NCBI GenBank assembly: GCA_964016885.1
Contig: OZ024741.1
Location: 257,052,001-257,116,000 of the forward strand
DNA from: Eledone cirrhosa
Taxonomy: Eukaryota
Reading direction: 5' to 3'
DNA: 64,000 bases
Both the position numbers and the translations under genes were made by a program. Below, in pieces: positions 26,388 to 55,659 of the stretch (positions within the stretch are counted from its first letter, which is position 1; the number at the start of each line of letters is the position of its first letter). Below the pieces are notes generated by a model. That model was not told the DNA's origin. It was given only the letters and a program-made list of their open reading frames with translations, and did not search any database.

Positions 26388-26457
26388 AAAATAACAAATA
26401 GACGCGGTTTCAAATCTGTATGCTTTTCAAGTTCATTACATTAATCTTTATTTATAC
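26388..26457 (+). repeat. 70-bp spacer, copy 6 (type B')
   Basis: Same haplotype as copy 3. Confidence 0.97.
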
Positions 26458-28382: not shown

Positions 28383-28452
28383 AAAATAACAAATAGACGC
28401 GGTTTCAAATCTCTATGCTTTTCAAATTCAGTACATTAATCTTTACTTATAC
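28383..28452 (+). repeat. 70-bp spacer, copy 7 (type A, TTACTTATAC end)
   Basis: CAAATTCAGTAC with a CTTTACTTATAC end. Confidence 0.97.
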
Positions 28453-31400: not shown

Positions 31401-32051
31401 AGTGTTCTGACTTACGAATGTTTCGGCTTATGAGTGTTTCGACTTACGAGTGTTTCGGTATATGAGTGTTTCGACTTACGAGTGTTTCGGCTTACGAGTG
31501 TTTCGACTTACGAGTGTTTCGACTTACGGGTGTTTCGACTTACGAGTGTTTCGTCTACGAGTGTTTCGGCTTACGAGTGTTTCGACATACGGGTGTTTCG
31601 ACTTACGGTGTTTCGGCTTACGAGTGTTTCGACTTACGAGTGTTCTGACTTACGAGTGTTCTGACTTATGAGTGTTCTGACTTACGAGTGTTCCGACTTA
31701 CGAGTGTTTCGGCTTACGAGTGTTTCGGCTTACGAGAGTTTCGACTTACGAGTGTTTCGACTTACGAGTGTTTCGACTTATGAGTGTTTTGACTTACGGT
31801 GTTTCGGCTTACGAGTGTTTCGACTTACGAGTGTTTTGACTTACTGGTGTTTTGACATACGAGTGTTTCGATACGAGTGTTTCGTCTTACGAGTGTTCTG
31901 ACTTACGAGTGTTCTGACTTACGAGTGTTCTGACTTACGAGTGTTCTAACTTACGAGTGTTCTGACTTACGAGTGTTCTGACTTACGAGTGTTCCGACTT
32001 ACGAGTGTTTCGGCTCACGAGTGTTTCGGCTTACGAGTGTTTCGACTTACG

Positions 32052-32121
32052 AAAATAACAAATAGACGCGGTTTCAAATCTCTATGCTTTTCAAATTCAG
32101 TACATTAATCTTTATTTATAC
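32052..32121 (+). repeat. 70-bp spacer, copy 8 (type A)
   Basis: CAAATTCAGTAC with a TTTATTTATAC end. Confidence 0.97.
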
Positions 32122-35100
32122 GTTTCGCTTTACGAGTGTTTAGACTTACGAGTGTTTCGACTTACGAGTGTTTCGGCTTACGAGTGTTTTGACTTACGAG
32201 TGTTTTGACTTACATGTGTTTCGACTTACGCGTGTTTCGACTTACGAGTGTTTCGACTTGCGAGTGTTTCGACTACGGGTGTTTCGACTTACGAATGTTT
32301 TGACTTACGGATGTTTTGACTTACGGGTGTTTCGGCGTACGAGTGTTTCGACTTACGAGTGTTCTGACTTACGAGTGTTCTGACTTACGAGTGTTCTGAC
32401 TTACGAGTGTTCCGACTTACGAGTGTTTCGACTTAAGAGTGTTTCGGATTACGAGTGCTTCGACTTACGAGTGTTTCGGCTAACGAGTGTTTCGACTTAC
32501 GAGTATTCTGACTACGAGTGTTCTGACTTACGGGTGTTCTGACTTACCAGTGTTCCGACTTACGAGTGTTTCGGCTTTCGAGTGTTTCGACTTACGAGTG
32601 TTTCGGGTTACGAGTGTTTCGACTTACGAATGTTTTCGCTTACGAGTGTTTCCGCTTACGAGTGTTTCGACTTACGAGTGTTTCGACTTACGAGTGTTTT
32701 GACTTACGGTTTTTCGGCTTGCGAGTGTTTCGACATACGAGTGTTTTGACTTACGGATGTTTCAACGTACGGGTGTTTCGACTTACGAGTGTTTCGACTT
32801 ACGAGTGTTCTGACTACGAGTGTTCTGACTTACGGGTGCTCTGACTTACGAGTGTTTCGACTTACGAGTGTTTCGACTTACGAGTGTTTCGGCTTACGAG
32901 TGTTTCGACTTACGAGTGTTTTGACTTACGAATGTTTTGCCTTACGGGTGTTCCGGTTTACGAGCGTTTCGACTTACGAGTATTCTGACTTACGAGTGTT
33001 CCGACTTACGGGTGTTTCGACTTACGAGTGTTTCGACTTACGAGTGTTCCGACCTATGAGGGTTTCGGCTTACTGGTGTTCCGACTTACGAGTATTTTCG
33101 GCTGACGAGTGTTTCGAGATACGAGTGTTTTGACTTACGATTGTTTCGGCTTACGAGTGTTTCGGCTTACGAGTGTTTTGATTTACGAGTGTTTTGACTT
33201 ACGGGTGTTTCGACTTACGCGTGTTTCGACTTACGAGTGTTTCGACTTACGAGTGTTTCGGCTTATGAGTGTTTCGAATTACGAGTGTTTTGACTTACAG
33301 GTGTTTTGACATACGAGTGTTTCGGTACGAGTGTTCTGACTTACGAGTGTTCTGACTCACGAGTGTTCTGACTTACGAGTGTTCTGACTAACGGGTGTTC
33401 TGACTTACGAGTGTTCCGACTTACGAGTGTTTCGGCTATGAGTGTTTTGACTTACGGGTGTTTCGACTTACGGGTGTTTCGACTTATGAGTGTTTCGACT
33501 TACGTGTGTTTCCGCTTACGAGTGTTTCGGCTTACGAGTGTTTCGAATTACGAGTGTTTTGGCTTACGAATGTTTTGACTTACGGGTGTTTCGACTTACG
33601 GGTGTTTCGGCTTACGAGTGTTTCGACTTACGAGTGTTTTGACTTACGAGTGTTCTGACTTACGAGTGTTCTGACTTACGAGTGTTCCGACTTACGAGTG
33701 TTCCGACTTACGAGTGTTTCGGCTTACGAGTGTTTCGGCTTACGAGTGTTTCGGCTTACGAGTGTTTTGACTTACGAGTGTTCTCACTACGAGTGTTCTG
33801 ACTTACGGGTGTTCTGACTTACGAGTGTTCCGACTTACGAGTGTTTCGGCTAATGAGTGTTTCGACTTACGGGCGTTTCGACTTACGGGTGTTTCGACTT
33901 ACGAGTGTTTTGACTTACGAGTGTTCTGACTTACGAGTGTTCTGACTTACGAGAGTTCCGACTTACGACTGTTTCGACTTACGAGTGTTTTGACTTACGA
34001 GTGTTCCGACTTACGAGTGTTTTGAATTACGATTGTTTCGGCTTACGAGTGTTTCGAATTACGAGTATTTCGACTTACGAGTTTTTTTACTTACGGTGTT
34101 TCGGCGTACGAGTGTTTCGACTTATGAGTGTTCTGATTTACGGATGTTTCGACATACGAGTGTTTTGACTTACGGTGTTTCGACTTACGGTGTTTTGACT
34201 TACGAGTGTTTCGACTTACGGGTGTTTCGACTTACGAGTGTTTCGACTTACGAGTGTTTCGACTTACAGGTGTTTCGGCTTACGAGTGTTTCGACTTACG
34301 AGTGTTCTGACTTACGAGTGTTCTGACTTACGAGTGTTCCGGCTTACGAGTTTTTCGACTTACGAGTGTTTCGACTTACGAGTGTTTCGGCTTACAAGTG
34401 TTTCGGCTTACGAGTGGTTTGACTTACGAGTGTTCTGACTACGAATGTTCTGTCTTACGAGTGTTTCGACTTACGAGTGTTTCGGCTTATGAGTGTTTCG
34501 ACGTACGAGTGTTTCGGCTTACGAGTGTTTCGACTTACGAGTGTTTCGACTTACGGGTGTTTCTACTTAGGAGTGTTTCGACTACGAGTGTTTCGACTTA
34601 CGAGTGTTTCGGCTTACGAGTGTTTCGACTTATGGGTGTTTCGACTTACGAGTGTTTTTACTTACGGTGTTTCGGCTTACGAGTGTTTCGACATACGAGT
34701 GTTTTGACTTACGGGTGTTTCGACTTACGAGTGTTTCGACTTACGAATGTTTTGACTTACGGGTGTTTCGGCTTACGAGTGTTTCGATTTATGAGTGTTT
34801 CGGCTTACGAGTGTTTCGACTTACTAATGTTTTTACTTACGAGTGTTTCGGCGTACGAGAGTTTTGACTTACGAGTGTTTCTACTTACGAGTGTTTCGAC
34901 GTACGAGTGTTTTGACTTACGAATGTTTCGACTTACGGGTGTTTCGGCTTACGAGTGTTTCGACTTACGAGTCTTTCGGCTTACGAGTGTTTCGACTTAC
35001 TAATGTTTTTACTTACGAGTGTTTCGGCGTACGAGTGTTTCGACTTACGAGTGTTTCGACTTACGGGTGTTTTGACTTACGGGTGTTTCGGCTTACGAGT

Positions 35101-36920
35101 GTTTCGACTTACGAGTGTTTTGACTTAAGGGTGTTTCGACTTACGAGTATTTTTGGCTTACGAGTGTTTCGACTTACGAGTGTTTTGACTTACGAGTGTT
35201 CTAATTTACGGATGTTTCGACATACGAGTGTTTTGACTTACGAGTGTATCGACTTACGAGTGTTTCGACTTACGAGTGTTTCGGCTTACGAGTGGTTTGA
35301 CTTACGAGTGTTCTGACTACGAGTGTTTTGACTTACGAGTGTTTCGGCTTATGAGTGTTTCGACTTACGAGTGTTTCGGCTTATGAGTGTTTCGACTTAC
35401 GAGTGTTTCGGTTTACGAGTGTTTCGACTTACGAGTGTTTCGACTTACGGGTGTTCCGACTTACGAGTGTTTCGACTACGAGTGTTTCGACTTACGAGTG
35501 TTTCGGCTTACGAGTGTTTCGACATACGGGTGTTTCGACTTACGATGTTTCGGCTTACGAGTGTTTCGACTTACGAGTGTTCTGACTTACGAGTGTTCTG
35601 ACTTATGAGTGTTCTGACTTACGAGTGTTCCGACTTACGAGTGTTTCGGCTTACGGGTGTTTCGACTTACGGGTGTTTCGACTTAAGAGTGTTTCGACTT
35701 ACGAGCGCTTCGACTTACGAGTGTTCTGACTTACGAGTGTTCCGACTTACGAGTGTTTCTGCTTACGAGTGTTTGGACTTACGAGTGTTTCGACTTACGA
35801 GTGTTTCGGCGTACGAGTGTTTTGACTTACGAGTGTTTCGACTGACGAGTGTTTCGACTTACGAGTGCTTTGACTTACGAATGTTTTGACTTACTTCGAC
35901 ATACGAGTGATCTGACTTACGAGTGTTCCTACTTACGAGTGTTTCGACTTACGAGTATTTCGACTTGTGAGTGTTTCGACTTACGAGTGTTTCGACTTAC
36001 GAGTGTTCTGACTTACGAGTGTTCTGACTTACGAGTGTTCCGACTTACGAGTGTTTCGGCTTACGAGTGTTTCGACTTACGAGTGTTCCGACTTACGCGT
36101 CTTTCGACTTACGAGTGTTTCGGCTTATGAGTGTTTCGACTTACGAGTGCTTCGGCTTACGAGTGTTTCGACATACGAGTGTTCTGACTTACGACTGTTC
36201 TGACTTACGAATGTTCCGACTTACGAGTCTTTCGACTTACGAATGTTTTGGCTTACGAGTGTTTCGGCTTATGAGTGTTTCGACTTACGAGTGTTTCGAC
36301 ATACGAGTGTTTTGACTTACGGGTGTTTCGACTTACGGGTGTTTCGACTTAAGAGTGTTTCGACTTACGAGCGCTTCAACTTACGAGTGTTCTGACTTAC
36401 GAGTGTTCCGACTTACGAGTGTTTCGGCTTACGAGTGTTTCGACTTACGAGTGTTCCGGCTTACGCGTGTTTCGACTTACGAGTGTTTCGGCTTATGAGT
36501 GTTTCGACTTACGAGTGCTTCGGCTTACGAGTGTTTCGACTTACGAGTGTTTCGGCTTACGAGTGTTTCGACTTACGAATGTTTTGGCTTACGAGTGTTT
36601 CGGCTTACGAGTGTTTCGACTTACGACTGTTTCGACTTACGAGTGTTTCTGCTTACGAATGTTTTGACTTACGAGTATTTCGGCTTACAAGTGTTTCGAC
36701 TTACGACTGTTTTGACTTACGGTTGTTTCGGCTTACGACTGTTTCGACTTACGAGTGTTTCGGCTTACGAGTGTTTCGGCTTACGAGTGTTTCGACTTAC
36801 GAGTGTTTGGGCTTACGAGTGTTTCAGTGTTTCGGCTTACGTGTGTTTCGACTTACGAGTGTTTCGATTTACGAGTGTTTCGGCTTACGAGTGTTTCGGC
36901 TTACGAGTGTTTCGGCTTAT

Positions 36921-37008
36921 TATATATAAACGTTTCTATTTCCATCGTTTTATCGTAAACGTTTATATATTCCCATCGTTATATCATAACGTGTATATTT
37001 CCGTCACT
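36921..37008 (+). repeat. Degenerate ~29-bp triple tandem repeat at the left end of the island (also at 52198-52285)
   Basis: ATAAACGTTTCTATTTCCATCGTTTT / ATCGTAAACGTTTATATATTCCCATCGTTAT / ATCATAACGTGTATATTTCCGTCACT. Confidence 0.75.
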
Positions 37009-37181
37009 AATCTCTTTTTCTCCTTTTTCGTTTTAACATATATTTATTTCAAAGATTTCACCGTATAGATAACATATATATTTATACATGCATAAAAGAC
37101 ACACTGAGAGACGGTGAATATGTGGTGCCAAAAACATTTCTAATCCAAATCTCAACAATATCAGTATATACACTAGATTTG

Positions 37182-37218
37182 CTAGCAGAAAACCGCCCAC
37201 CGGGTTGTTTTCTGCTAG
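37182..37218. other. Hairpin CTAGCAGAAAACCGCCC-ACC-GGGTTGTTTTCTGCTAG (putative Helitron 3' terminal hairpin plus CTAG)
   Basis: 17-bp stem: 12 perfect pairs, one C-T mismatch, one G-T wobble, three C-G pairs; 3-nt loop. Both ends are CTAG. The structure is directly visible; its role is inferred. Confidence 0.9.
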
Positions 37219-37233
37219 TCTATATATATAAAA

Positions 37234-37625
37234 CTGAGGATGTCTGTCTGTGTGTGAGTTTGAATCCCTAAAACTCGAGAACCACCCAACCGACTGTTTT
37301 CAAACTTTACACATGTAATACTTACGTTTCAGGGAGTGTTCTGAGCAAACAATATTTCAAATTTTCAATGCCCTAGCGACCACATTAGGCGATTTAGGGA
37401 TCTCTCTCTATAATTCTTAGTCTTTCTCTTTTTAGATAGATACATACATATAACGTCGTGCCCTTATAATATCTGTCTGTATGTCTGGCTGTCTGCATTA
37501 CGTCACTTCCCTGAGGATGTCTGTCTGTGTGTGTGTCTGTGAGTTTGAATCCCTAAAATGCGAAAAGTACCCAACCGATTTTTTTCAAACTTTACATGTG
37601 TATTACTTATGTTTCAGGGAGTGTT
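37234..37625 (+). repeat. Diverged ~110-bp direct repeat pair inside island 1 (37234-37340 and 37511-37625)
   Basis: Both copies run CTGAGGATGTCTGTCTGTGTGTG...GAGTTTGAATCCCTAAAA...ACCCAACCGA...TTTTCAAACTTTACA...TACTTAYGTTTCAGGGAGTGTT. Start-to-start distance is 277 bp. Confidence 0.95.
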
Positions 37626-38547
37626 TGTTATGCACATAAAATTCAACCTTTTGATCTGGAGTTTCGACTTACGAGTGTTTCGACTTACGAGTATTTTGAC
37701 TTACGAATGTTCTGACTTACGGGTGTTTCGGCTTCCGAGTGTTTCGACTTACGAGTGTTATAACTTGCGGGTGTTTCGACTTACGCGTGTTTTGACTTAC
37801 GGGCGTTTCGACTTAGGAGTGTTTCGACTACGAATGTTCCGACATACGAGTGTTTCGACTTACGAGTGTTTCGACTTACGAGTGTTCTGACTTACGAGTG
37901 TTCCGGCTTACGAGTTTTTCGACTTACGAGTGTTTCGACTTACGAGTGTTCTGACTACGAGTGTTCTGACTTACGAGTGTTTCGGCTTATGAGTGTTTCG
38001 ACTTACGAGTGTTTCGGTTTATGAGTGTTTCGACTTACGAGTGTTTCGACTTACGAGTGTTTCGGCTTACGAGTGTTTCGACATACGGGTGTTTCGACTT
38101 ACGGTGTTTCGGCTTACGAGTGTTTCGACTTACGAGTGTTCTGACTTACGAGTGTTCTGACTTATGAGTGTTCTGACTTACCAGTGTTCCGACTTACGAG
38201 TGTTTCGGCTTACGAGTGTTTCGGCTTACGAGTGTTTCGACTTACGAGTGTTTCGACTTACGAGTGTTTCGACTTATGAGTGTTTTGACTTACGGTGTTT
38301 CGGCTTACGAGTGTTTCGACTTACGAGTGTTTTGACTTACTGGTGTTTTGACATACGAGTGTTTCGATACGAGTGTTTCGACTTACGGGTGTTCTGACTT
38401 ACGAGTGTTCTGACTTACGAGTGTTCTGACTTACGAGTGTTCCAATTTACGAGTGTTCTGACTTACGAGTGTTCTGACTTACGAGTGTTCCGACTTACGA
38501 GTGTTTCGGCTCACGAGTGTTTCGGCTTACGAGTGTTTCGACTTACG

Positions 38548-38617
38548 AAAATAACAAATAGACGCGGTTTCAAATCTCTATGCTTTTCAAATTCAGTACA
38601 TTAATCTTTATTTATAC
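38548..38617 (+). repeat. 70-bp spacer, copy 9 (type A)
   Basis: Same haplotype as copy 8. Confidence 0.97.
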
Positions 38618-41600
38618 GTTTCGCTTTACGAGTGTTTCGACTTACGAGTGTTTCGACTTACGAGTGTTTCGGCTTACGAGTGTTTTGAATTACGAGTGTT
38701 TTGACTTACATGTGTTTCGACTTACGCGTGTTTCGACTTACGAGTGTTTCGACTTGCGAGTGTTTCGACTACGGGTGTTTCGACTTACGAATGTTTTGAC
38801 TTACGGATGTTTTGACTTACGGGTGTTTCGGCTTACGAGTGTTTCGACTTACGAGTGTTCTGACTTACGAGTGTTCTGACTTACGAGTGTTCCGACTTAC
38901 GAGTGTTTCGACTTAAGAGTGTTTCGGATTACGAGTGCTTCGACTTACGAGTGTTTCGGCTAACGAGTGTTTCGACTTACGAATGTTCTGACTACGAGTG
39001 TTCTGACTTACGGGTGTTCTGACTTACGAGTGTTCCGACTTACGAGTGTTTCGGCTTACGAGTGTTTCGGGTTACGAGTGTTTCGACTTACGAATGTTTT
39101 CGCTTACGAGTGTTTCCGCTTACGAGTGTTTCGACTTACGAGTGTTTCGACTTACGAGTGTTTTGACTTACGGTTTTTCGGCTTGCAAGTGTTTCGACAT
39201 ACGAGTGTTTTGACTTACGGGCGTTTCGACTTACGGGTGTTTCGACTTACGAGTGTTTCGACTTACGAGTGTTCTGACTTACGAGTGTTCTGACTTGCGA
39301 GTGTTCCGACTTACGAGTGTTTCGGCTTACGAGTGTTTCGACATACGAGTGTTTTGACTTACGGATGTTTCAACTTACGGGTGTTTCGACTTACGAGTGT
39401 TTCGACTTACGAGTGTTTTGACTTACGAATGTTTTGCCTTACGGGTGTTCCGGTTTACGAGTGTTTCGACTTACGAGTATTCTGACTTACGAGTGTTCCG
39501 ACTTACGTGTGTTTCGGCTTACGAGTGTTTCGGCTTACGAGTGTTTTGACTTACGAGTGTTCTGACTACGAGTGTTCTGACTTACGGGTGTTCTGACTTA
39601 CGGTGTTCCGACTTACGAGTGTTTCGGCTAATGAGTGTTTCGACTTACGGGCGTTTCGACTTACGGGTGTTTCGAATTACGAGTGTTTTGACTTACGAGT
39701 GTTCTGACTTACGAGTGTTTTGACTTACGAGTGTTCCGACTTACGAGTGTTTCGGCTTACGGGTGTTTCGACGTACGAGTATTTTTGGCTTACGAGTGTT
39801 TCGAGTTACGAGTGTTTTGAATTACGATTGTTTTGGCTTACGAGTGTTTCGACTTACGAGTATTTCGACTTACGAGTTTTTTTACTTACGGTGTTTCGGC
39901 TTACGAGTGTTTCGACTTACGAGTGTTTCGACTTACGGGTGTTTTGACATACGAGTGTTTCGATATGAGTGCTCTGACTTACGAGTGTTCTGACTTATGA
40001 GTGTTCTGACTTACGAGTGTTCTGACTTACGGGTGTTCTGACTTACGTGTGTTCCGACTTACGAGTGTTTCAGCTATGGGTGTTTCGACTTACGAGTGTT
40101 TCGACTTACGAATGTTTTGGCTTACGAGTGTTTCGGCTTACGTGTGTTTCGACTTACGAATGTTTTGGCTTACGAGTGTTTCGGCTTATGGGTGTTTCGA
40201 CTTACGAGTGTTTCGACTTACGAGTGTTTTGACTTACGGTGTTTCGGCTTACAAGTTATTCGACATACGAGTGTTTCGACTTACGGGTGTTTCGACTTAC
40301 GGGTGTTTCGACTTACGAGTGTTTCGACTTACGAGTGTTCTGACTTACGAGTGTTCTGACTTACGAGTGTTCTGACTTACGAGTGTTCCGACTTACGAGT
40401 GTTCCGACTTACGAGTGTTTTGACTTACGAGTGTTCTGACTTACGAGTGTTCTGACTTACGAGTGTTCCGACTTACGAGTGTTCCGACTTACGAGTGTTT
40501 CGGCTTACGAGTGTTTCGGCTTACTAATGTTTTCACTTACGAGTGTTTCGGTGTACGAGTGTTTCGACTTAAGGATGTTTCGACTTACGAGTGTTTCGAC
40601 TTACGAGTGTTTCGACTTACGAGTGTTTTGGCTTACGAATGTTTTTACTTACGGGTGTTTCGACTTACGGGTGTTTCGGCTTACGAGTGTTTCGACTTAC
40701 GAGTGTTTTGACTTACGAGTGTTCTGACTTACGAGTGTTCCGACTTACGAGTGTTCCGACTTACGAGTGTTTCGGCTTACGAGTGTTTCGGCTTACGAGT
40801 GTTTCGGCTTACGAGTGTTTTGACTTACGAGTGTTCTGACTACGAGTGTTCTGACTTACGGGTGTTCTGACTTACGAGTGTTCCGACTTACGAGTGTTTC
40901 GGCTAATGAGTGTTTCGACTTACGGGCGTTTCGACTTACGGGTGTTTCGACTTACGAGTGTTTTGACTTATGAGTGTTCAGACTTACGAGTGTTCTGACT
41001 TACGAGTGTTCCGACTTACGACTGTTTCGACTTACGAGTGTTTTGACTTACGAGTGTTCCGACTTACGATTGTTTCGGCTTACGGGTGTTTCGACGTACG
41101 AGTATTTTTGGCTTACGAGTGTTTCGACTTACGAGTGTTTTGAATTACGATTGTTTCGGCTTACGAGTGTTTCGACTTACGAGTATTTCGACGTACGAGT
41201 TTTTTTTCCTTACGGTGTTTCGGCTTACGAGTGTTTCGACTTATGAGTGTTTCGACTTACGAGTGTTCTGACTTACGAGTGTTCTGACTTGCGAGTGTTC
41301 CGACTTACGAGTGTTTCGGCTTACGAGTGTTTCGACATACGAGTGTTTTGACTTACGGATGTTTCGACTTACGGGTGTTTCGACTTACGAGTGTTTCGAC
41401 TTACGAGTGTTCCGACCTACGAGGGTTTCAGCTTACGGGTGTTCCGGCTTATGAGTATTTTCGGCTTACGTGTGTTTCGACTTACGAGTGTTTTGACTTA
41501 CGATTGTTTCGGCTTACGAGTGTTTCGACTTACGAGTGTTTCTACTTACGAGTGTTTTGACTTACGATTGTTTCGGCTTACGAGTGTTTCGACTTACGAG

Positions 41601-41662
41601 TGTTCTGACTTACGAGTGTTCTGACTTACGAGTGTTCTGACTTACGAGTGTTTCGACTTACG

Positions 41663-41732
41663 AAAATAACAAATAGACGCGGTTTCAAATCTGTATGCTT
41701 TTCAAGTTCATTACATTAATCTTTATTTATAC
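41663..41732 (+). repeat. 70-bp spacer, copy 10 (type B')
   Basis: Duplicate of copy 6 at offset 15275. Confidence 0.97.
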
Positions 41733-43657
41733 GTTTCGCTTTACGAATGTTTCGACTTACGAGTGTTTCGACTTACGAGTGTTTCGACTTACGGGTGTTT
41801 CGACTTACGAGTGTTTCGACATACGAGTGTTCTGACTACGAGTGTTCTGACTTACGGGTGCTCTGACTTACGAGTGTTTCGACTTACGAGTGTTTCGACT
41901 TACGAGTGTTTCGACTTACGAGTGTTTCGGCTTACGAGTGTTTCGACTTACTAATGTTTTTACTTACGAGTGTTTCGGTGTACGAGTGTTTCGACTTAAG
42001 GATGTTTCGACTTACGAGTGTTTCGACTTACGAGTGTTTTGGCTTACGTGAGTTTCGACTTAAGAGTGTTCTGATTTACGAGTGTTCTGACTTGCGGGTG
42101 TTCTGATTTACGAGTGTTCCGACTTACGAGTGTTTCGGCTTATGAGTGTTTCGACTTACGAGTGTTTCGGCTTACGAGTGTTTCGACTTATGGGCGTTTC
42201 GACTTACGAGTGTTTTTACTTACGGTGTTTCGGCTTACGAGTGCTTCGACATACGAGTGTTTTGACTTACGTGTGTTTCGACTTACGAGTGTTTTGACTT
42301 ACGAATGTTTTGACTTACGAGTGTTTCGGCGTACGAGAGTTTTGACTTACGAGTGTTTCTACTTACGAGTGTTTCGACTTACGAGTGTTTTGACTTACGA
42401 ATGTTTTGACTTACGGGTGTTTCGGCTTACGAGTGTTTCGACTTACGAGTCTTTCGGCTTACGAGTGTTTCGACTTACTAATGTTTTTACTTACGAGTGT
42501 TTCGGCGTACGAGTGTTTCGACTTACGAGTGTTTCGGCTTACGAGTGTTTCGACTTACTAATGTTTTTACTTACGAGTGTTTCGGCGTACGAGTGTTTCG
42601 ACTTACGAGTGTTTTTACTTAAGGGTGTTTCGACTTACGTGTATTTTTGGCTTACGAGTGTTTCGACTTACGAGTGTTTTGACTTACGAGTGTTCTGATT
42701 TACGGATGTTTCGACATACGAGTGTTTTGACTTACGATGTTTCGACTTACGAGTGTTTCGACTTACGAGTGTTTCGACTTACGGGTGTTTCGACTTACGA
42801 GTGTTTCAACTTACGAGTGTTTCGACTTACGAATGTTTCGACTTACGGGTGTTTCGGCTTACGAGTGTTTCGACTTACGAGTGTTCTGACTTACGAGTGT
42901 TCTGACTTACGAGTGTTCCGGCTTACGAGTTTTTCGACTTACGAGTGTTTCGACTTACGAGTGTTTCGACTTACGAGTGTTTCGGCTTACGAGTGGTTTG
43001 ACTTACGAGTGTTCTGACTACGAGTGTTCTGACTTACGAGTGTTTCGGCTTATGATTGTTTCGACTTACGAGTGTTTCGGTTTATGAGTGTTTCGACTTA
43101 CGAGTGTTTCGGCTTACGAGTGTTTCGACTTACGAGTGTTTCGACTTACGGGTGTTTCGACTTACGAGTGTTTCGTCTACGAGTGTTTCGGCTTACGAGT
43201 GTTTCGACATACGGGTGTTTCGACTTACGGTGTTTCGGCTTACGAGTGTTTCGACTTACGAGTGTTCTGACTTACGAGTGTTCTGACTTATGAGTGTTCC
43301 GACTTACGAGTGTTTCGGCTTACGAGTGTTTCGGCTTACGAGTGTTTCGACTTACGAGTGTTTCGACTTACGAGTGTTTCGACTTATGAGTGTTTTGACT
43401 TACGGTGTTTCGGCTTACGAGTGTTTCGACTTACGAGTGTTTTGACTTACTGGTGTTTTGACATACGAGTGTTTCGATACGAGTGTTTCGACTTACGAGT
43501 GTTCTGACTTACGAGTGTTCTGACTTACGAGTGTTCTGACTTACGAGTGTTCTAACTTACGAGTGTTCTGACTTACGAGTGTTCTGACTTACGAGTGTTC
43601 CGACTTACGAGTGTTTCGGCTCACGAGTGTTTCGGCTTACGAGTGTTTCGACTTACG

Positions 43658-43727
43658 AAAATAACAAATAGACGCGGTTTCAAATCTCTATGCTTTTCAA
43701 ATTCAGTACATTAATCTTTACTTATAC
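43658..43727 (+). repeat. 70-bp spacer, copy 11 (type A, TTACTTATAC end)
   Basis: Duplicate of copy 7 at offset 15275. Confidence 0.97.
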
Positions 43728-46700
43728 GTTTCGCTTTACGAGTGTTTCGACTTACGAGTGTTTCGACTTACGAGTGTTTCGGCTTACGAGTGTTTTGACT
43801 TACGAGTGTTTTGACTTACATGTGTTTCGACTTACGCGTGTTTCGACTTACGAGTGTTTCGACTTGCGAGTGTTTCGACTACGGGTGTTTCGACTTACGA
43901 ATGTTTTGACTTACGGATGTTTCGGCTTACGAGTGTTTCGACTTACGAGTGTTCTGACTTACGAGTGTTCTGACTTACGAGTGTTCTGACTTACGAGTGT
44001 TCCGACTTACGAGTGTTTCGACTTAAGAGTGTTTCGGATTACGAGTGCTTCGACTTACGAGTGTTTCGGCTAACGAGTGTTTCGACTTACGAGTATTCTG
44101 ACTACGAGTGTTCTGACTTACGGGTGTTCTGACTTACGAGTGTTCCGACTTACGAGTGTTTCGGCTTTCGAGTGTTTCGACTTACGAGTGTTTCGGGTTA
44201 CGAGTGTTTCGACTTACGAATGTTTTCGCTTACGAGTGTTTCCGCTTTCGCGTGTTTCGAATTACGAGTGTTTCGACTTACGAGTGTTTTGACTTACGGT
44301 TTTTCGGCTTGCGAGTGTTTCGACATACGAGTGTTTTGACTTACGGATGTTTAAACTTACGGGTGTTTCGACTTACGAGTGTTTCGACTCACGAGTGTTC
44401 TGACTACGAGTGTTCTGACTTACGGGTGCTCTGACTTACGAGTGTTTCGACTTACGAATGTTTCGACTTACGAGTGTTTCGACTTACGAGTGTTTCGACT
44501 TACGAGTGTTTTGACTTACGAATGTTTTGCCTTACGGGTGTTCCGGTTTACGAGTGTTTCGACTTACGAGTATTCTGACTTACGAGTGTTCCGACTTACG
44601 GGTGTTTCGACTTACGAGTGTTTCGACTTACGAGTGTTCCGACCTATGAGGGTTTCGGCTTACTGGTGTTCCGACTTACGAGTATTTTCGGCTGACGAGT
44701 GTTTCGAGTTACGAGTGTTTTGACTTACGATTGTTTCGGCTTACGAGTGTTTCGGCTTACGAGTGTTTTGATTTACGAGTGTTTTGACTTACGGGTGTTT
44801 CGACTTACGCGTGTTTCGACTTACGAGTGTTTCGACTTACGAGTGTTTCGGCTTATGAGTGTTTCGAATTACGAGTGTTTTGACTTACGGGTGTTTTGAC
44901 ATACGAGTGTTTCGGTACGAGTGTTCTGACTTACGAGTGTTCTGACTTACGAGTGTTCTGACTTACGAGTGTTCTGACTAACGGGTGTTCTGACTTACGA
45001 GTGTTCCGACTTACGAGTGTTTCGGCTTACGGGTGTTTCGACTTACGAGTGTTTTGACTTACGAGTGTTCTGACTTACGAGTGTTCTGACTTACGAGTGT
45101 TCTGACTTACGACTGTTTCGACTTACGAGTGTTTTGACTTACGAGTGTTCCGACTTACGTGTGTTTCGGCTTACGGGTGTTTCGACGTACGAGTATTTTT
45201 GGCTTACGAGTGTTTCGACTTACGAGTGTTTTGAATTACGATTGTTTCGGCTTACGAGTGTTTCGACTTACGAGTATTTCGACTTACGAGTGTTTTGACT
45301 TACGGGTGTTTTGACATACGAGTGTTTCGATACGAGTGCTCTGACTTACGAGTGTTCTGACTTACGAGTGTTCTGACTTACGAGTGTTCTGACTTACGGG
45401 TGTTCTGACTTACGTGTGTTCCGACTTACAAGTGTTTCGGCTATGGGTGTTTCGACTTACAAGTGTTTCGACTTACGAATGTTTTGGCTTACGAGTGTTT
45501 CGGCTTACGAGTGTTTCGACTTACGAATGTTTTGGCTTACGAGTGTTTCGTTTTATGGGTGTTTCGACTTACGAGTGTTTCGACTTACGAGTGTTTCGAC
45601 TTACTAATGTTTTTACTTACGAGTGTTTCGGTGTACGAGTGTTTCGACTGAAGGATGTTTCGACTTACGAGTGTTTCGACTTACGAGTGTTTCGGCTTAC
45701 GTGAGTTTCGACTTAAGAGTGTTCTGATTTACGAGTGTTCTGACTTGCGGGTGTTCTGATTTACGAGTGTTCCGACTTACGAGTGTTTCGGCTTATGAGT
45801 GTTTCGACTTACGAGTGTTTCGGCTTACGAGTGTTTCGACTTATGGGCGTTTCGACTTACGAGTGTTTTTACTTACGGTGTTTCGGCTTACGAGTGCTTC
45901 GACATACGAGTGTTTTGACTTACGTGTGTTTCGACTTACGAGTGTTTTGACTTACGAATGTTTTGACTTACGAGTGTTTCGGCGTACGAGAGTTTTGACT
46001 TACGAGTGTTTCTACTTACGAGTGTTTCGACTTACGAGTGTTTTGACTTACGAATGTTTTGACTTACGGGTGTTTCGGCTTACGAGTGTTTCGACTTACG
46101 AGTCTTTCGGCTTACGAGTGTTTCGACTTACTAATGTTTTTACTTACGAGTGTTTCGGCGTACGAGTGTTTCGACTTACGAGTGTTTCGGCTTACGAGTG
46201 TTTCGACTTACTAATGTTTTTACTTACGAGTGTTTCGGCGTACGAGTGTTTCGACTTACGAGTGTTTTTACTTAAGGGTGTTTCGACTTACGTGTATTTT
46301 TGGCTTACGAGTGTTTCGACTTACGAGTGTTTTGACTTACGAGTGTTCTGATTTACGGATGTTTCGACATACGAGTGTTTTTTTACTTACGATGTTTCGA
46401 CTTACGAGTGTTTCGACTTACGAGTGTTTCGACTTACGGGTGTTTCGACTTACGAGTGTTTCAACTTACGAGTGTTTCGACTTACGAATGTTTCGACTTA
46501 CGGGTGTTTCGGCTTACGAGTGTTTCGACTTACGAGTGTTCTGACTTACGAGTGTTCTGACTTACGAGTGTTCCGGCTTACGAGTTTTTCGACTTACGAG
46601 TGTTTCGACTTACGAGTGTTTCGACTTACGAGTGTTTCGGCTTACGAGTGGTTTGACTTACGAGTGTTCTGACTACGAGTGTTCTGACTTACGAATGTTT

Positions 46701-47328
46701 CGGCTTATGAGTGTTTCGACTTACGAGTGTTTCGGTATATGAGTGTTTCGACTTACGAGTGTTTCGGCTTACGAGTGTTTCGACTTACGAGTGTTTCGAC
46801 TTACGGGTGTTTCGACTTACGAGTGTTTCGTCTACGAGTGTTTCGGCTTACGAGTGTTTCGACATACGGGTGTTTCGACTTACGGTGTTTCGGCTTACGA
46901 GTGTTTCGACTTACGAGTGTTCTGACTTACGAGTGTTCTGACTTATGAGTGTTCTGACTTACGAGTGTTCCGACTTACGAGTGTTTCGGCTTACGAGTGT
47001 TTCGGCTTACGAGAGTTTCGACTTACGAGTGTTTCGACTTACGAGTGTTTCGACTTATGAGTGTTTTGACTTACGGTGTTTCGGCTTACGAGTGTTTCGA
47101 CTTACGAGTGTTTTGACTTACTGGTGTTTTGACATACGAGTGTTTCGATACGAGTGTTTCGTCTTACGAGTGTTCTGACTTACGAGTGTTCTGACTTACG
47201 AGTGTTCTGACTTACGAGTGTTCTAACTTACGAGTGTTCTGACTTACGAGTGTTCTGACTTACGAGTGTTCCGACTTACGAGTGTTTCGGCTCACGAGTG
47301 TTTCGGCTTACGAGTGTTTCGACTTACG

Positions 47329-47398
47329 AAAATAACAAATAGACGCGGTTTCAAATCTCTATGCTTTTCAAATTCAGTACATTAATCTTTATTTATAC
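47329..47398 (+). repeat. 70-bp spacer, copy 12 (type A)
   Basis: Duplicate of copy 8 at offset 15277. Confidence 0.97.
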
Positions 47399-50300
47399 GT
47401 TTCGCTTTACGAGTGTTTAGACTTACGAGTGTTTCGACTTACGAGTGTTTCGGCTTACGAGTGTTTTGACTTACGAGTGTTTTGACTTACATGTGTTTCG
47501 ACTTACGCGTGTTTCGACTTACGAGTGTTTCGACTTGCGAGTGTTTCGACTACGGGTGTTTCGACTTACGAATGTTTTGACTTACGGATGTTTTGACTTA
47601 CGGGTGTTTCGGCGTACGAGTGTTTCGACTTACGAGTGTTCTGACTTACGAGTGTTCTGACTTACGAGTGTTCTGACTTACGAGTGTTCCGACTTACGAG
47701 TGTTTCGACTTAAGAGTGTTTCGGATTACGAGTGCTTCGACTTACGAGTGTTTCGGCTAACGAGTGTTTCGACTTACGAGTATTCTGACTACGAGTGTTC
47801 TGACTTACGGGTGTTCTGACTTACCAGTGTTCCGACTTACGAGTGTTTCGGCTTTCGAGTGTTTCGACTTACGAGTGTTTCGGGTTACGAGTGTTTCGAC
47901 TTACGAATGTTTTCGCTTACGAGTGTTTCCGCTTACGAGTGTTTCGACTTACGAGTGTTTCGACTTACGAGTGTTTTGACTTACGGTTTTTCGGCTTGCG
48001 AGTGTTTCGACATACGAGTGTTTTGACTTACGGATGTTTCAACGTACGGGTGTTTCGACTTACGAGTGTTTCGACTTACGAGTGTTCTGACTACGAGTGT
48101 TCTGACTTACGGGTGCTCTGACTTACGAGTGTTTCGACTTACGAGTGTTTCGACTTACGAGTGTTTCGGCTTACGAGTGTTTCGACTTACGAGTGTTTTG
48201 ACTTACGAATGTTTTGCCTTACGGGTGTTCCGGTTTACGAGCGTTTCGACTTACGAGTATTCTGACTTACGAGTGTTCCGACTTACGGGTGTTTCGACTT
48301 ACGAGTGTTTCGACTTACGAGTGTTCCGACCTATGAGGGTTTCGGCTTACTGGTGTTCCGACTTACGAGTATTTTCGGCTGACGAGTGTTTCGAGATACG
48401 AGTGTTTTGACTTACGATTGTTTCGGCTTACGAGTGTTTCGGCTTACGAGTGTTTTGATTTACGAGTGTTTTGACTTACGGGTGTTTCGACTTACGCGTG
48501 TTTCGACTTACGAGTGTTTCGACTTACGAGTGTTTCGGCTTATGAGTGTTTCGAATTACGAGTGTTTTGACTTACAGGTGTTTTGACATACGAGTGTTTC
48601 GGTACGAGTGTTCTGACTTACGAGTGTTCTGACTCACGAGTGTTCTGACTTACGAGTGTTCTGACTAACGGGTGTTCTGACTTACGAGTGTTCCGACTTA
48701 CGAGTGTTTCGGCTATGAGTGTTTTGACTTACGGGTGTTTCGACTTACGGGTGTTTCGACTTATGAGTGTTTCGACTTACGTGTGTTTCCGCTTACGAGT
48801 GTTTCGGCTTACGAGTGTTTCGAATTACGAGTGTTTTGGCTTACGAATGTTTTGACTTACGGGTGTTTCGACTTACGGGTGTTTCGGCTTACGAGTGTTT
48901 CGACTTACGAGTGTTTTGACTTACGAGTGTTCTGACTTACGAGTGTTCTGACTTACGAGTGTTCCGACTTACGAGTGTTCCGACTTACGAGTGTTTCGGC
49001 TTACGAGTGTTTCGGCTTACGAGTGTTTCGGCTTACGAGTGTTTTGACTTACGAGTGTTCTCACTACGAGTGTTCTGACTTACGGGTGTTCTGACTTACG
49101 AGTGTTCCGACTTACGAGTGTTTCGGCTAATGAGTGTTTCGACTTACGGGCTTTTCGACTTACGGGTGTTTCGACTTACGAGTGTTTTGACTTACGAGTG
49201 TTCTGACTTACGAGTGTTCTGACTTACGAGAGTTCCGACTTACGACTGTTTCGACTTACGAGTGTTTTGACTTACGAGTGTTCCGACTTACGAGTGTTTT
49301 GAATTACGATTGTTTCGGCTTACGAGTGTTTCGAATTACGAGTATTTCGACTTACGAGTTTTTTTACTTACGGTGTTTCGGCGTACGAGTGTTTCGACTT
49401 ATGAGTGTTCTGATTTACGGATGTTTCGACATACGAGTGTTTTGACTTACGGTGTTTCGACTTACGGTGTTTTGACTTACGAGTGTTTCGACTTACGGGT
49501 GTTTCGACTTACGAGTGTTTCGACTTACGAGTGTTTCGACTTACAGGTGTTTCGGCTTACGAGTGTTTCGACTTACGAGTGTTCTGACTTACGAGTGTTC
49601 TGACTTACGAGTGTTCCGGCTTACGAGTTTTTCGACTTACGAGTGTTTCGACTTACGAGTGTTTCGGCTTACAAGTGTTTCGGCTTACGAGTGGTTTGAC
49701 TTACGAGTGTTCTGACTACGAATGTTCTGTCTTACGAGTGTTTCGACTTACGAGTGTTTCGGCTTATGAGTGTTTCGACGTACGAGTGTTTCGGCTTACG
49801 AGTGTTTCGACTTACGAGTGTTTCGACTTACGGGTGTTTCTACTTAGGAGTGTTTCGACTACGAGTGTTTCGACTTACGAGTGTTTCGGCTTACGAGTGT
49901 TTCGACTTATGGGTGTTTCGACTTACGAGTGTTTTTACTTACGGTGTTTCGGCTTACGAGTGTTTCGACATACGAGTGTTTTGACTTACGGGTGTTTCGA
50001 CTTACGAGTGTTTCGACTTACGAATGTTTTGACTTACGGGTGTTTCGGCTTACGAGTGTTTCGATTTATGAGTGTTTCGGCTTACGAGTGTTTCGACTTA
50101 CTAATGTTTTTACTTACGAGTGTTTCGGCGTACGAGAGTTTTGACTTACGAGTGTTTCTACTTACGAGTGTTTCGACGTACGAGTGTTTTGACTTACGAA
50201 TGTTTCGACTTACGGGTGTTTCGGCTTACGAGTGTTTCGACTTACGAGTCTTTCGGCTTACGAGTGTTTCGACTTACTAATGTTTTTACTTACGAGTGTT

Positions 50301-52458
50301 TCGGCGTACGAGTGTTTCGACTTACGAGTGTTTCGACTTACGGGTGTTTTGACTTACGGGTGTTTCGGCTTACGAGTGTTTCGACTTACGAGTGTTTTGA
50401 CTTAAGGGTGTTTCGACTTACGAGTATTTTTGGCTTACGAGTGTTTCGACTTACGAGTGTTTTGACTTACGAGTGTTCTAATTTACGGATGTTTCGACAT
50501 ACGAGTGTTTTGACTTACGAGTGTATCGACTTACGAGTGTTTCGACTTACGAGTGTTTCGGCTTACGAGTGGTTTGACTTACGAGTGTTCTGACTACGAG
50601 TGTTTTGACTTACGAGTGTTTCGGCTTATGAGTGTTTCGACTTACGAGTGTTTCGGCTTATGAGTGTTTCGACTTACGAGTGTTTCGGTTTACGAGTGTT
50701 TCGACTTACGAGTGTTTCGACTTACGGGTGTTCCGACTTACGAGTGTTTCGACTACGAGTGTTTCGACTTACGAGTGTTTCGGCTTACGAGTGTTTCGAC
50801 ATACGGGTGTTTCGACTTACGATGTTTCGGCTTACGAGTGTTTCGACTTACGAGTGTTCTGACTTACGAGTGTTCTGACTTATGAGTGTTCTGACTTACG
50901 AGTGTTCCGACTTACGAGTGTTTCGGCTTACGGGTGTTTCGACTTACGGGTGTTTCGACTTAAGAGTGTTTCGACTTACGAGCGCTTCGACTTACGAGTG
51001 TTCTGACTTACGAGTGTTCCGACTTACGAGTGTTTCTGCTTACGAGTGTTTGGACTTACGAGTGTTTCGACTTACGAGTGTTTCGGCGTACGAGTGTTTT
51101 GACTTACGAGTGTTTCGACTGACGAGTGTTTCGACTTACGAGTGCTTTGACTTACGAATGTTTTGACTTACTTCGACATACGAGTGATCTGACTTACGAG
51201 TGTTCCTACTTACGAGTGTTTCGACTTACGAGTATTTCGACTTGTGAGTGTTTCGACTTACGAGTGTTTCGACTTACGAGTGTTCTGACTTACGAGTGTT
51301 CTGACTTACGAGTGTTCCGACTTACGAGTGTTTCGGCTTACGAGTGTTTCGACTTACGAGTGTTCCGACTTACGCGTCTTTCGACTTACGAGTGTTTCGG
51401 CTTATGAGTGTTTCGACTTACGAGTGCTTCGGCTTACGAGTGTTTCGACATACGAGTGTTCTGACTTACGACTGTTCTGACTTACGAATGTTCCGACTTA
51501 CGAGTCTTTCGACTTACGAATGTTTTGGCTTACGAGTGTTTCGGCTTATGAGTGTTTCGACTTACGAGTGTTTCGACATACGAGTGTTTTGACTTACGGG
51601 TGTTTCGACTTACGGGTGTTTCGACTTAAGAGTGTTTCGACTTACGAGCGCTTCAACTTACGAGTGTTCTGACTTACGAGTGTTCCGACTTACGAGTGTT
51701 TCGGCTTACGAGTGTTTCGACTTACGAGTGTTCCGGCTTACGCGTGTTTCGACTTACGAGTGTTTCGGCTTATGAGTGTTTCGACTTACGAGTGCTTCGG
51801 CTTACGAGTGTTTCGACTTACGAGTGTTTCGGCTTACGAGTGTTTCGACTTACGAATGTTTTGGCTTACGAGTGTTTCGGCTTACGAGTGTTTCGACTTA
51901 CGACTGTTTCGACTTACGAGTGTTTCTGCTTACGAATGTTTTGACTTACGAGTATTTCGGCTTACAAGTGTTTCGACTTACGACTGTTTTGACTTACGGT
52001 TGTTTCGGCTTACGACTGTTTCGACTTACGAGTGTTTCGGCTTACGAGTGTTTCGGCTTACGAGTGTTTCGACTTACGAGTGTTTGGGCTTACGAGTGTT
52101 TCAGTGTTTCGGCTTACGTGTGTTTCGACTTACGAGTGTTTCGATTTACGAGTGTTTCGGCTTACGAGTGTTTCGGCTTACGAGTGTTTCGGCTTATTAT
52201 ATATAAACGTTTCTATTTCCATCGTTTTATCGTAAACGTTTATATATTCCCATCGTTATATCATAACGTGTATATTTCCGTCACTAATCTCTTTTTCTCC
52301 TTTTTCGTTTTAACATATATTTATTTCAAAGATTTCACCGTATAGATAACATATATATTTATACATGCATAAAAGACACACTGAGAGACGGTGAATATGT
52401 GGTGCCAAAAACATTTCTAATCCAAATCTCAACAATATCAGTATATACACTAGATTTG

Positions 52459-52495
52459 CTAGCAGAAAACCGCCCACCGGGTTGTTTTCTGCTAG
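52459..52495. other. Hairpin, second copy
   Basis: Same sequence as 37182-37218. Confidence 0.9.
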
Positions 52496-52510
52496 TCTAT
52501 ATATATAAAA

Positions 52511-52902
52511 CTGAGGATGTCTGTCTGTGTGTGAGTTTGAATCCCTAAAACTCGAGAACCACCCAACCGACTGTTTTCAAACTTTACACATGTAATACTT
52601 ACGTTTCAGGGAGTGTTCTGAGCAAACAATATTTCAAATTTTCAATGCCCTAGCGACCACATTAGGCGATTTAGGGATCTCTCTCTATAATTCTTAGTCT
52701 TTCTCTTTTTAGATAGATACATACATATAACGTCGTGCCCTTATAATATCTGTCTGTATGTCTGGCTGTCTGCATTACGTCACTTCCCTGAGGATGTCTG
52801 TCTGTGTGTGTGTCTGTGAGTTTGAATCCCTAAAATGCGAAAAGTACCCAACCGATTTTTTTCAAACTTTACATGTGTATTACTTATGTTTCAGGGAGTG
52901 TT
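52511..52902 (+). repeat. Diverged ~110-bp direct repeat pair inside island 2 (52511-52617 and 52788-52902)
   Basis: Same as the pair in island 1. Confidence 0.95.
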
Positions 52903-53903
52903 TGTTATGCACATAAAATTCAACCTTTTGATCTGGAGTTTCGACTTACGAGTGTTTCGACTTACGAGTATTTTGACTTACGAATGTTCTGACTTACGGG
53001 TGTTTCGGCTTCCGAGTGTTTCGACTTACGAGTGTTATAACTTGCGGGTGTTTCGACTTACGCGTGTTTTGACTTACGGGCGTTTCGACTTAGGAGTGTT
53101 TCGACTACGAATGTTCCGACATACGAGTGTTTCGACTTACGAGTGTTTCGACTTACGAGTGTTCTGACTTACGAGTGTTCCGGCTTACGAGTTTTTCGAC
53201 TTACGAGTGTTTCGACTTACGAGTGTTCTGACTACGAGTGTTCTGACTTACGAGTGTTTCGGCTTATGAGTGTTTCGACTTACGAGTGTTTCGGTTTATG
53301 AGTGTTTCGACTTACGAGTGTTTCGGCTTACGAGTGTTTCGACTTCCGAGTGTTTCGACTTACGGGTGTTTCGACTTACGAGTGTTTCGTCTACGAGTGT
53401 TTCGACTTACGAGTGTTTCGGCTTACGAGTGTTTCGACATACGGGTGTTTCGACTTACGGTGTTTCGGCTTACGAGTGTTTCGACTTACGAGTGTTCTGA
53501 CTTACGAGTGTTCTGACTTATGAGTGTTCTGACTTACCAGTGTTCCGACTTACGAGTGTTTCGGCTTACGAGTGTTTCGGCTTACGAGTGTTTCGACTTA
53601 CGAGTGTTTCGACTTACGAGTGTTTCGACTTATGAGTGTTTTGACTTACGGTGTTTCGGCTTACGAGTGTTTCGACTTACGAGTGTTTTGACTTACTGGT
53701 GTTTTGACATACGAGTGTTTCGATACGAGTGTTTCGACTTACGGGTGTTCTGACTTACGAGTGTTCTGACTTACGAGTGTTCTGACTTACGAGTGTTCCA
53801 ATTTACGAGTGTTCTGACTTACGAGTGTTCTGACTTACGAGTGTTCCGACTTACGAGTGTTTCGGCTCACGAGTGTTTCGGCTTACGAGTGTTTCGACTT
53901 ACG

Positions 53904-53973
53904 AAAATAACAAATAGACGCGGTTTCAAATCTCTATGCTTTTCAAATTCAGTACATTAATCTTTATTTATAC
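53904..53973 (+). repeat. 70-bp spacer, copy 13 (type A)
   Basis: Duplicate of copy 9 at offset 15356. Confidence 0.97.
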
Positions 53974-55659
53974 GTTTCGCTTTACGAGTGTTTCGACTTA
54001 CGAGTGTTTCGACTTACGAGTGTTTCGGCTTACGAGTGTTTTGAATTACGAGTGTTTTGACTTACATGTGTTTCGACTTACGCGTGTTTCGACTTACGAG
54101 TGTTTCGACTTGCGAGTGTTTCGACTACGGGTGTTTCGACTTACGAATGTTTTGACTTACGGATGTTTTGACTTACGGGTGTTTCGGCTTACGAGTGTTT
54201 CGACTTACGAGTGTTCTGACTTACGAGTGTTCTGACTTACGAGTGTTCCGACTTACGAGTGTTTCGACTTAAGAGTGTTTCGGATTACGAGTGCTTCGAC
54301 TTACGAGTGTTTCGGCTAACGAGTGTTTCGACTTACGAATGTTCTGACTACGAGTGTTCTGACTTACGGGTGTTCTGACTTACGAGTGTTCCGACTTACG
54401 AGTGTTTCGGCTTACGAGTGTTTCGGGTTACGAGTGTTTCGACTTACGAATGTTTTCGCTTACGAGTGTTTCCGCTTACGAGTGTTTCGACTTACGAGTG
54501 TTTCGACTTACGAGTGTTTTGACTTACGGTTTTTCGGCTTGCAAGTGTTTCGACATACGAGTGTTTTGACTTACGGGCGTTTCGACTTACGGGTGTTTCG
54601 ACTTACGAGTGTTTCGACTTACGAGTGTTCTGACTTACGAGTGTTCTGACTTGCGAGTGTTCCGACTTACGAGTGTTTCGGCTTACGAGTGTTTCGACAT
54701 ACGAGTGTTTTGACTTACGGATGTTTCAACTTACGGGTGTTTCGACTTACGAGTGTTTCGACTTACGAGTGTTTTGACTTACGAATGTTTTGCCTTACGG
54801 GTGTTCCGGTTTACGAGTGTTTCGACTTACGAGTATTCTGACTTACGAGTGTTCCGACTTACGTGTGTTTCGGCTTACGAGTGTTTCGGCTTACGAGTGT
54901 TTTGATTTACGAGTGTTTTGACTTACGGGTGTTTCGACTTACGCGTGTTTCGACTTACGAGTGTTTCGACTTACGAGTGTTTCGGCTAATGAGTGTTTCG
55001 AATTACGAGTGTTTTGACTTACGGGTGTTTTGACATACGAGTGTTTCGGTACGAGTGTTCTGACTTACGAGTGTTCTGACTTACGAGTGTTCTGACTTAC
55101 GAGTGTTCTGACTAACGGGTGTTCTGACTTACGAGTGTTGCGACTTACGAGTGTTTCGGCTATGAGTGTTTTGACTTACGTGTGTTTCGACTTACAGGTG
55201 TTTCGACTTACGAGTGTTTCGACTTACGAGTGTTCTGACTTACGAGTGTTCGGATCTACGAGTGTTCCGGCTTACGACTTTTTCGACTTACGAGTGTTTC
55301 GACTTACGAGTGTTTCGGCTTACAAGTGTTTCGGCTTACGAGTGGTTTGACTTACGAGTGTTCTGACTACGAGTGTTCTGTCTTACGAGTGTTTCGACTT
55401 ACGAGTGTTTCGGCTTATGAGTGTTTCGACTTACGAGTGTTTCGGCTTACGAGTGTTTCGACTTACGAGTGTTTCGACTTATGGGTGTTTCGACTTACGA
55501 GTGTTTCGACTACGAGTGTTTCGACTTACGAGTGTTTCGGCTTACGAGTGTTTCGACTTATGGGTGTTTCGACTTACGAGTGTTTTTACTTACGGTGTTT
55601 CGGCTTACGAGTGTTTCGACATACGAGTGTTTTGACTTACGGGTGTTTCGACTTACGAG

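Follow-up and report, generated by a model that had tools for sequence, protein, structure and literature searches.

Organization of the window

We analyzed a 64,000-nucleotide stretch of the Eledone cirrhosa genome, here called the window (C2:257,052,001-257,116,000 of the 3.0-Gb assembly). Nearly all of it is one 16-bp satellite of about 4,000 monomers (83% matches and 96% coverage). Embedded in the satellite are two copies of a short island in which the tail of one Helitron transposon, module A, directly abuts the truncated head of another, family B. We regard it as probable that the island is an A tail plus a truncated B head, that the satellite grew from the short central repeat of module A, and that ordinary duplication of the satellite then carried the island along and multiplied it as a passenger. 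The features of the window are as follows.

1..64000, plus strand: 16-bp satellite, homologous to the 2- to 4-copy central repeat of Helitron module A
36920..37218, plus strand: 3' arm (tail) of module A, ending in CTAG; 97 to 98% identity to dispersed tails on C1, C3, C4, C6, C14, C22, and C25
37182..37218, plus strand: terminal hairpin with a 12-bp stem that includes the final CTAG (-13.4 kcal/mol as DNA); also present in the tails of family E Helitrons
37219..37657, plus strand: 5' half of a B-family Helitron, truncated at a constant position and joined there to satellite; an uncut B measures 889 bp and has a CTAG end of its own
52197..52495, plus strand: second copy of the module A tail
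52496..52934, plus strand: second copy of the truncated family B head
38551..38617, plus strand: 67-bp piece from the 5' region of module A; each copy is followed by A's variant first monomer
7744, 10141, 13735, 15698, 18095, 26391, 28386, 32055, 41666, 43661, 47332, 53907, and 61428: the other 13 of the 14 67-bp pieces in the window
24240..54905, plus strand: tandem duplication of 15.3 kb, in which about 24240-39549 was copied to 39515-54905; it breaks within satellite at either end and has the island in its interior

The island spans 36920-37657, and its second copy (52197-52934) is offset by 15,277. The hairpin-CTAG ending at 37218 is joined without a gap to TCTATATATATAAAA at 37219, as the original prediction had stated, and the outer edges of the island pass directly into 16-mer on both sides. 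The absence of a 5' arm from positions 1-36919 was likewise borne out, with no B head found there; the upstream unit, predicted to exceed 37 kb, is 204,051 bp of satellite back to the previous island. The second junction was correctly ascribed to the 15.3-kb duplication, whose breakpoints lie in satellite with the island copied inside. The motifs at 37218 and 37219 are true Helitron termini, as had been proposed; CTAG and TC are the exact points at which homology among dispersed copies ends. The proposal of a tail-to-head junction in place of an ordinary insertion also holds. A single 741-bp element inserted in the satellite was rejected, as homology breaks in the middle of the island and separate dispersed relatives exist for each half. 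The proposed tie between the satellite and the central repeat of a dispersed Helitron-type element also holds, the repeat in question being the 16-mer of module A. Raw reads from another sample (1,915 reads) had mixed loose ends before 37219.

Other parts of the prediction did not hold. The two arms had been taken for the ends of one element, but the 5' arm belongs to family B, which lacks the 16-mer and has its own 3' end, and the dispersed copies expected in the order 5' arm, 16-mer, 3' arm were not found. Searched separately, the arms had many copies in the C2 region, and the 3' arm was also dispersed on other contigs. The real 5' part of the 16-mer element differs from the predicted 5' arm; it is preserved at three block edges and in the form of the 67-bp non-satellite piece, whose 14 copies in the window had been overlooked.

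Two Helitron families contribute to the island

Family B measures 889 bp in the copy used, contains no 16-mer, and has its own hairpin-CTAG end, with the hairpin 12 bases before the 3' end. Its homology to the window starts exactly at 37219. The exact 22-base B tail has 2,172 matches genome-wide, and the next base is T in 100/100 among the matches listed. Uncut sister copies of the window's B lie at C2:240.96 Mb and C4:114.05 Mb; the window B head is 97.3% identical to the former and 96.6% to the latter, and 79 to 94% identical to the other dispersed B copies that matched. The truncated head (37219-37657) contains an internal direct repeat, 37234-37340 versus 37511-37625, at 83%.

Dispersed, uninterrupted copies of module A are 482 to 514 bp long and consist of a TC head, the 67-bp piece, 2 to 4 16-mers, and the 3' arm. 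A T follows A-type tails in 100/100 among the matches listed. The tail hairpin is strong and atypical in that it encloses the final CTAG, unlike the tails of B and of the intact autonomous element described below. Upstream of module A we found piece D, D-associated sequence, or A itself in 36/36 rows (35 places), so that a free element starting at A's own TC is unsupported. Module A is the 3' part of composite non-autonomous Helitrons in which a family E head is followed by middle piece D and then by A. The E head was found in 14/38 rows within the 1.0 to 1.5 kb examined upstream, and in 14/14 found cases it follows a host A, with every flank different. The E-D-A composite and family B are canonical non-autonomous Helitrons by their TC start, CTRR end followed by T, and 3' hairpin. 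Both probably insert between A and T without target duplication, to judge from flanks that fit this site.

The conserved arms of module A enclose a central tandem repeat, a feature of HINE and DINE-1 elements, with 2 to 4 monomers in dispersed copies and more in single copies. The 5' flanks end in A in 14/14 cases, not in the oligo-T of HINE/DINE-1 insertion sites. Module A is thus HINE-like in its central repeat, and we do not assign it to HINE.

Family E elements (L108:3017-3546 and genome-wide) share with module A the terminal hairpin that encloses CTAG; the loop is reversed in some of them, and they too lie before Helitron heads. Trains of at least three stacked non-autonomous Helitrons (E, D, A, B, and others) were observed at L045, L057, L066, L075, and L086; in these trains D is cut at several points before the A head, some of which are A-T sites in D. 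One module A copy (L071:1845-2172) has a second internal tandem expansion, with a unit of about 31 bp, in its tail, which indicates that other parts of A also amplify.

Copying of the island in the C2 array

The exact joint between the B head and the satellite has 104 matches, all in C2 256.63-261.67 Mb; the 100 listed ones lie between 256.63 and 261.63 Mb, and loci in 261.64-261.67 Mb supply the remaining 4. This number is a lower bound, as two variant joints escaped the exact pattern. Because all islands share one B-head breakpoint, they descend from one event. The earlier caveat that a single independent junction is seen is superseded, as at least 104 such islands occur in the C2 region.

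In a survey of 56 islands in 454 kb, an A tail preceded and satellite followed the B head in 56/56. The 56 B heads had a median identity of 97.7%, and the islands form sequence subtypes. CTAG was kept in 16/56 islands and lost in 40/56, where it reads CTAT or CTAA. Island spacing ranged from 1.9 to 204 kb, with local runs of 4 to 6 near-identical units of 2.8 to 4 kb; the regular runs begin about 1.0 and 1.3 kb before the junction. Tandem pairs, grouped by start point (our own grouping), gave 13 duplication events. The duplication starts 1.0 to 17.8 kb before the junction in 11/13, and at the left edge of the tail in one other, whose second copy lacks a closing tail. One of the 13 fits a unit bounded by junctions, and the other 12 do not.

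The original prediction read the array as a rolling-circle concatemer, in which B head, satellite, and A tail would be one chimeric element. Rolling-circle tandem Helitron arrays are described for plants and bats (Xiong 2016; Pritham and Feschotte 2007; both as cited in PMC12628747, PMC2267711, and PMC5876387) and tandem Helitrons for Drosophila Y chromosomes (bioRxiv 10.1101/2021.06.02.446622), and the C2 array resembles them in its repeated tail-to-head junctions. The exact CTAG-TC junction is the form reported for Helitron circles (PMC4778049 and PMC5876387), and the local runs, the single junction-bounded duplication, and the 16 islands with CTAG also fit a concatemer. In its favor, too, Helraiser is reported to be able to end at non-canonical tetranucleotides. 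However, the tandems in these accounts are of one element, whereas the junction here joins two families, unit length varies, and breakpoints lie in satellite. Units are not bounded by termini, 40 of the 56 islands were amplified despite loss of CTAG, the regular runs start well before the junction at widely varying spacing, and all of the 104 exact joints are confined to one 5-Mb region of C2. The concatemer model is largely refuted by these observations, and we consider it highly improbable; CTAG-TC junctions in arrays do not prove rolling-circle concatemers. The simplest reading would be one founding rearrangement followed by transposase-independent copying.

Assembly error could in principle create both the repeated islands and the 15.3-kb duplication. 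N gaps do occur at several block edges, and no record examined was shown to span the joint between B head and satellite. Against this, the islands differ from each other and fall into subtypes, and contigs span the tail-head join in 3/3 contig runs, two of them from other organism labels. We give an artefact almost no weight.

Probable growth from three monomers to a megabase satellite

It is an open question how a short transposon repeat grows into a megabase satellite, and the stages in between are seldom observed. The 16-mer occurs in a series of sizes within this assembly. The smallest stage is the 2 to 4 monomers of dispersed A copies. At C2:80.55 Mb, an intact copy contains a 222-bp array of 14 monomers; the element downstream of this copy has, on the minus strand, an apparent remnant of what we take to be a PIF1-type helicase end (L091:4540-4660). 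A complete train of 4,310 bp, bounded by A-TC and CTAG-T, lies at C4:114,050,785-114,055,094 and consists of E head, D, A head, 2.3 kb of satellite with three 67-bp pieces, A tail, and B. A 4-kb fragment at C2:240.96 Mb retains the tail and the uncut B, this B copy being cut off, so that it has no outer flank to compare with C4. On C1 there is a 96.6-kb 16-mer array without element ends at either edge (L095:1-6658, L148:3306-10000, and L149; C1:279.29-279.41 Mb). It adjoins other satellites and an N gap, with an approximately 23-bp satellite on one side and 33/5-bp and 19-bp satellites on the other.

The largest stage comprises 16-mer patches over C2:254,735,084-263,085,118, between which lie a 39-bp satellite and other sequence; the 16-mer was present in 28/50 unevenly spaced spot samples of this region. 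A single continuous 2.7-Mb block at 254.74-257.43 Mb was rejected, as the 39-bp satellite interrupts it. Across C2 254.4-263.1 Mb (L105-L107, L113, L118, L291-L299, and L303), a 36- to 39-bp satellite and the 16-mer take turns in blocks that are tens to hundreds of kilobases long; the former changes strand near 254.72 Mb. Two right block edges (L145:6607 and L150:1249) have one common flank and three left block edges (L151-L153) another; block edges are segmentally duplicated over megabases. An inversion that would have parted the 254.7-Mb head from the 240.96-Mb tail found no support, since the examined edges do not match. From its megabase size, the interleaved 39-bp satellite, and the gaps, the 16-mer array is possibly centromeric.

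These stages are linked by diagnostic variants. The 67-bp piece of module A is built into every long array examined, and its exact joint with the satellite has 1,981 matches genome-wide (on C1 and C2 among the matches listed). Scaling these joints by local density gives a rough total of 9 Mb of 16-mer satellite. In 84/84 cases A's variant first monomer directly follows the 67-bp piece. The array form of the piece carries an 8-bp deletion that ordinary A copies lack, and an A head with this deletion, the founder type, was found at 4 places only, namely, the C4 train and the left edges of three C2 blocks. The 3-monomer, 14-monomer, 2.3-kb, 97-kb, and megabase stages share diagnostic variants, and the roles of transposition and unequal exchange can therefore be separated. 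The satellite is likely the expanded interior of a Helitron, its growth from the element being suggested by the size series.

The direction might instead be reversed, with the satellite existing first, module A capturing three monomers, and A flanks entering the array later by recombination through the 16-mer. Recombination between element-borne and free arrays has been proposed for oyster Cg170 (PMC12628747), and most block edges, as well as both edges of the C1 array, lack a Helitron end. The 16-mer is also abundant in contigs of runs under two other organism labels, which indicates that the satellite may be old and leaves the direction of origin unproven. A further point that weighs against growth from the element comes from the three founder-type heads on C2. 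They have no E or D parts and lack A's first 8 bases and the TC; their approximately 95% identical flanks indicate one event, and they do not show how the founder reached C2. On the other side, the reversed direction has to contend with the 67-bp piece built in at 1,981 exact places, with a derived deletion in the array form that ordinary A copies lack, and with 14-monomer and 2.3-kb intermediates inside intact elements. We think the reversed order unlikely and favor growth from module A.

Satellites from central repeats of Helitron-family elements are established in the accounts of DINE-TR1 in Drosophila (PMC9957191) and Cg_HINE/Cg170 in the Pacific oyster (PMC7492417; reviewed in PMC12628747). 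In those accounts, the monomer of a short array at the center of a dispersed non-autonomous rolling-circle element also forms long satellite, and one-sided intermediate arrays exist; both hold here. In contrast to the 140- to 180-bp monomers given for DINE-TR1 and Cg170, the present monomer is 16 bp, pieces of the element act as higher-order spacers in the array, and the size series lies within one assembly. The ends are TC and CTAG at A-T sites, whereas HINEs are reported at oligo-T sites (PMC7492417). The satellite follows a known route, of which it offers a new example with unusually clear stages. The island is a relic of two families, not a concatemer joint.

The following course of events may be proposed. 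Module A, bearing 2 to 4 16-mers within dispersed E-D-A composites, would be the source, and its tail, which nearly always abuts a Helitron head, would have come to lie there by insertion at the A-T site formed by a host A and the T of a resident TC, through tail-to-head joining as in Helitron circles. The lineage with the 8-bp deletion and a particular B partner, of which the 4.3-kb train on C4 is a complete example, carries an expanded array in which the 67-bp piece recurs. The first satellite-tail-head-satellite island could have arisen on C2 when a single duplication ran from position 439 of B back into the array. Finally, the array would have grown to megabases and the island to more than 100 copies through unequal exchange or similar copying, not transposase, because the duplication breakpoints and the lost CTAG argue for this mode. 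A comparable scheme has been described for transposable element (TE) dimers, which can arise through insertion-site preference and seed satellites (McGurk and Barbash 2018, PMC5932611). There too, a preferred target gives rise to a tandem junction, and unequal exchange expands it afterwards. In that account each TE dimer comes from a single family and retains the target duplication between its members, whereas here the dimer is of two families, there is no duplication, and it is an internal 16-mer that expanded.

Tail-to-head joins genome-wide

The exact 36-base join of A tail and B head occurs 516 times genome-wide, with 97 scattered along C1. The A-type hairpin end has 833 matches; among those listed, counted by hand, the next bases are TC in 89/100 and TA in 11/100, and at least 2 of the 11 TA cases are the same palindrome read from the opposite strand and have a B head at its far end. 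After B tails, TC follows in only 4/100 among the matches listed of the 2,172 (Fisher P = 2e-38 for 89/100 versus 4/100). Head-like sequence of several families followed 32/32 A tails at loci picked by A sequence, and one of these heads belongs to a RepHel-coding element. In 17 A-B pairs, the A tails were 98.0% alike and the B heads 87.9%, uncorrelated, and 0/136 B-head pairs reached 97%; a cruder identity measure pointed the same way (medians 94.6% versus 88.6%). This pattern indicates that young A-type elements joined independently to older, mixed residents. The counts point to an A-type insertion that may be aimed at the heads of other Helitrons, and the A-T site of a host A and a resident TC would account for the joins with canonical chemistry. 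The CTAG-enclosing hairpin may be a candidate cause of the head preference. After family B tails, TATATAATAAAAT-like sequence is often found, resembling Helitron heads without the C; general target choice may thus mimic the Helitron 5' end.

Joining of tail to head has precedents. It is a reported activity of the Helraiser transposase (PMC5876387), which is also described as preferring AT with an AT-rich 3' flank (PMC4778049), and Helitron chimeras are noted in silkworm (PMC3789558). In maize, a head-to-tail Helitron pair was attributed to consecutive insertion (Du et al. 2008, PMC2267711), and maize Helitrons are said to tend to insert near or in each other and to include multi-terminus Helitrons (PMC3288121). 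As in the maize pair (PMC2267711), the joins here bring two Helitrons together at CTAG-TC, with insertion at the A-T site of host A and resident head, and internal tails with damaged CTAG are described in maize as well (PMC2267711 and PMC3288121). However, the maize accounts concern one pair or a loose preference for nearby insertion, whereas one tail type here follows a near-obligate, base-exact rule (89/100 versus 4/100, among the matches listed). In the literature that we covered, which left subscription papers, Repbase, Dfam, and supplements outside its scope, we found no report of a Helitron family nearly always placed before another's head, only single cases and loose preferences.

The joins might also arise by read-through, if the A tail failed as a terminator and A moved with its downstream neighbor rather than by aimed insertion. 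The stem of the A hairpin includes the final CTAG and that of B does not, bypass of the 3' end is reported for Helraiser, and the founder A-B pair is common to C4 and C2. Such co-movement predicts matched divergence, however, and B partners are 88% and A tails 98% alike without correlation; moreover, the downstream heads come from several families, including the RepHel-coding element. Read-through as the general explanation therefore appears very unlikely to us.

Several points count against aimed insertion. The listed matches behind both tail counts lie entirely on C1, and the order of insertion is judged from divergence. The pairing of the same A and B variants on C4 and C2 indicates that the pair was copied together at least once. 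No A-type tail was found on the 11 autonomous elements examined of 3,704 candidates. We advance the following only tentatively: a Helitron lineage with a CTAG-enclosing hairpin may target the 5' ends of other Helitrons almost exclusively and so build stacked trains, one of which would have seeded a multi-megabase, possibly centromeric satellite with a history readable from three monomers. Near-obligate head-targeting would be the most surprising part. If true, this would be a target-specific Helitron with a safe-site strategy and an explanation for composite Helitrons, and it would offer a handle on the target choice of the RepHel enzyme.

RepHel-coding Helitrons

The 3,704 candidates for RepHel-coding Helitrons in the genome (150 scored) include an apparently intact 6.7-kb autonomous element at L215:2803 to 9502 (C2:315.52-315.53 Mb). 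Its open frame of 1,718 amino acids has STPR repeats and Rep, Helitron_like_N, and PIF1 helicase domains, and its head, TCTATATATATA, resembles the B head. In two other RepHel elements (L221 and L225), a tail is followed by a head of similar sequence. RepHel copies occur at C20 3.5-5.2 Mb, C27 13.1-15.5 Mb, C19 35-40 Mb, and C16 0.5-0.8 Mb. On C20 and C27, near-identical copies recur every 100 to 150 kb or so, a spacing that suggests large tandem segmental repeats.

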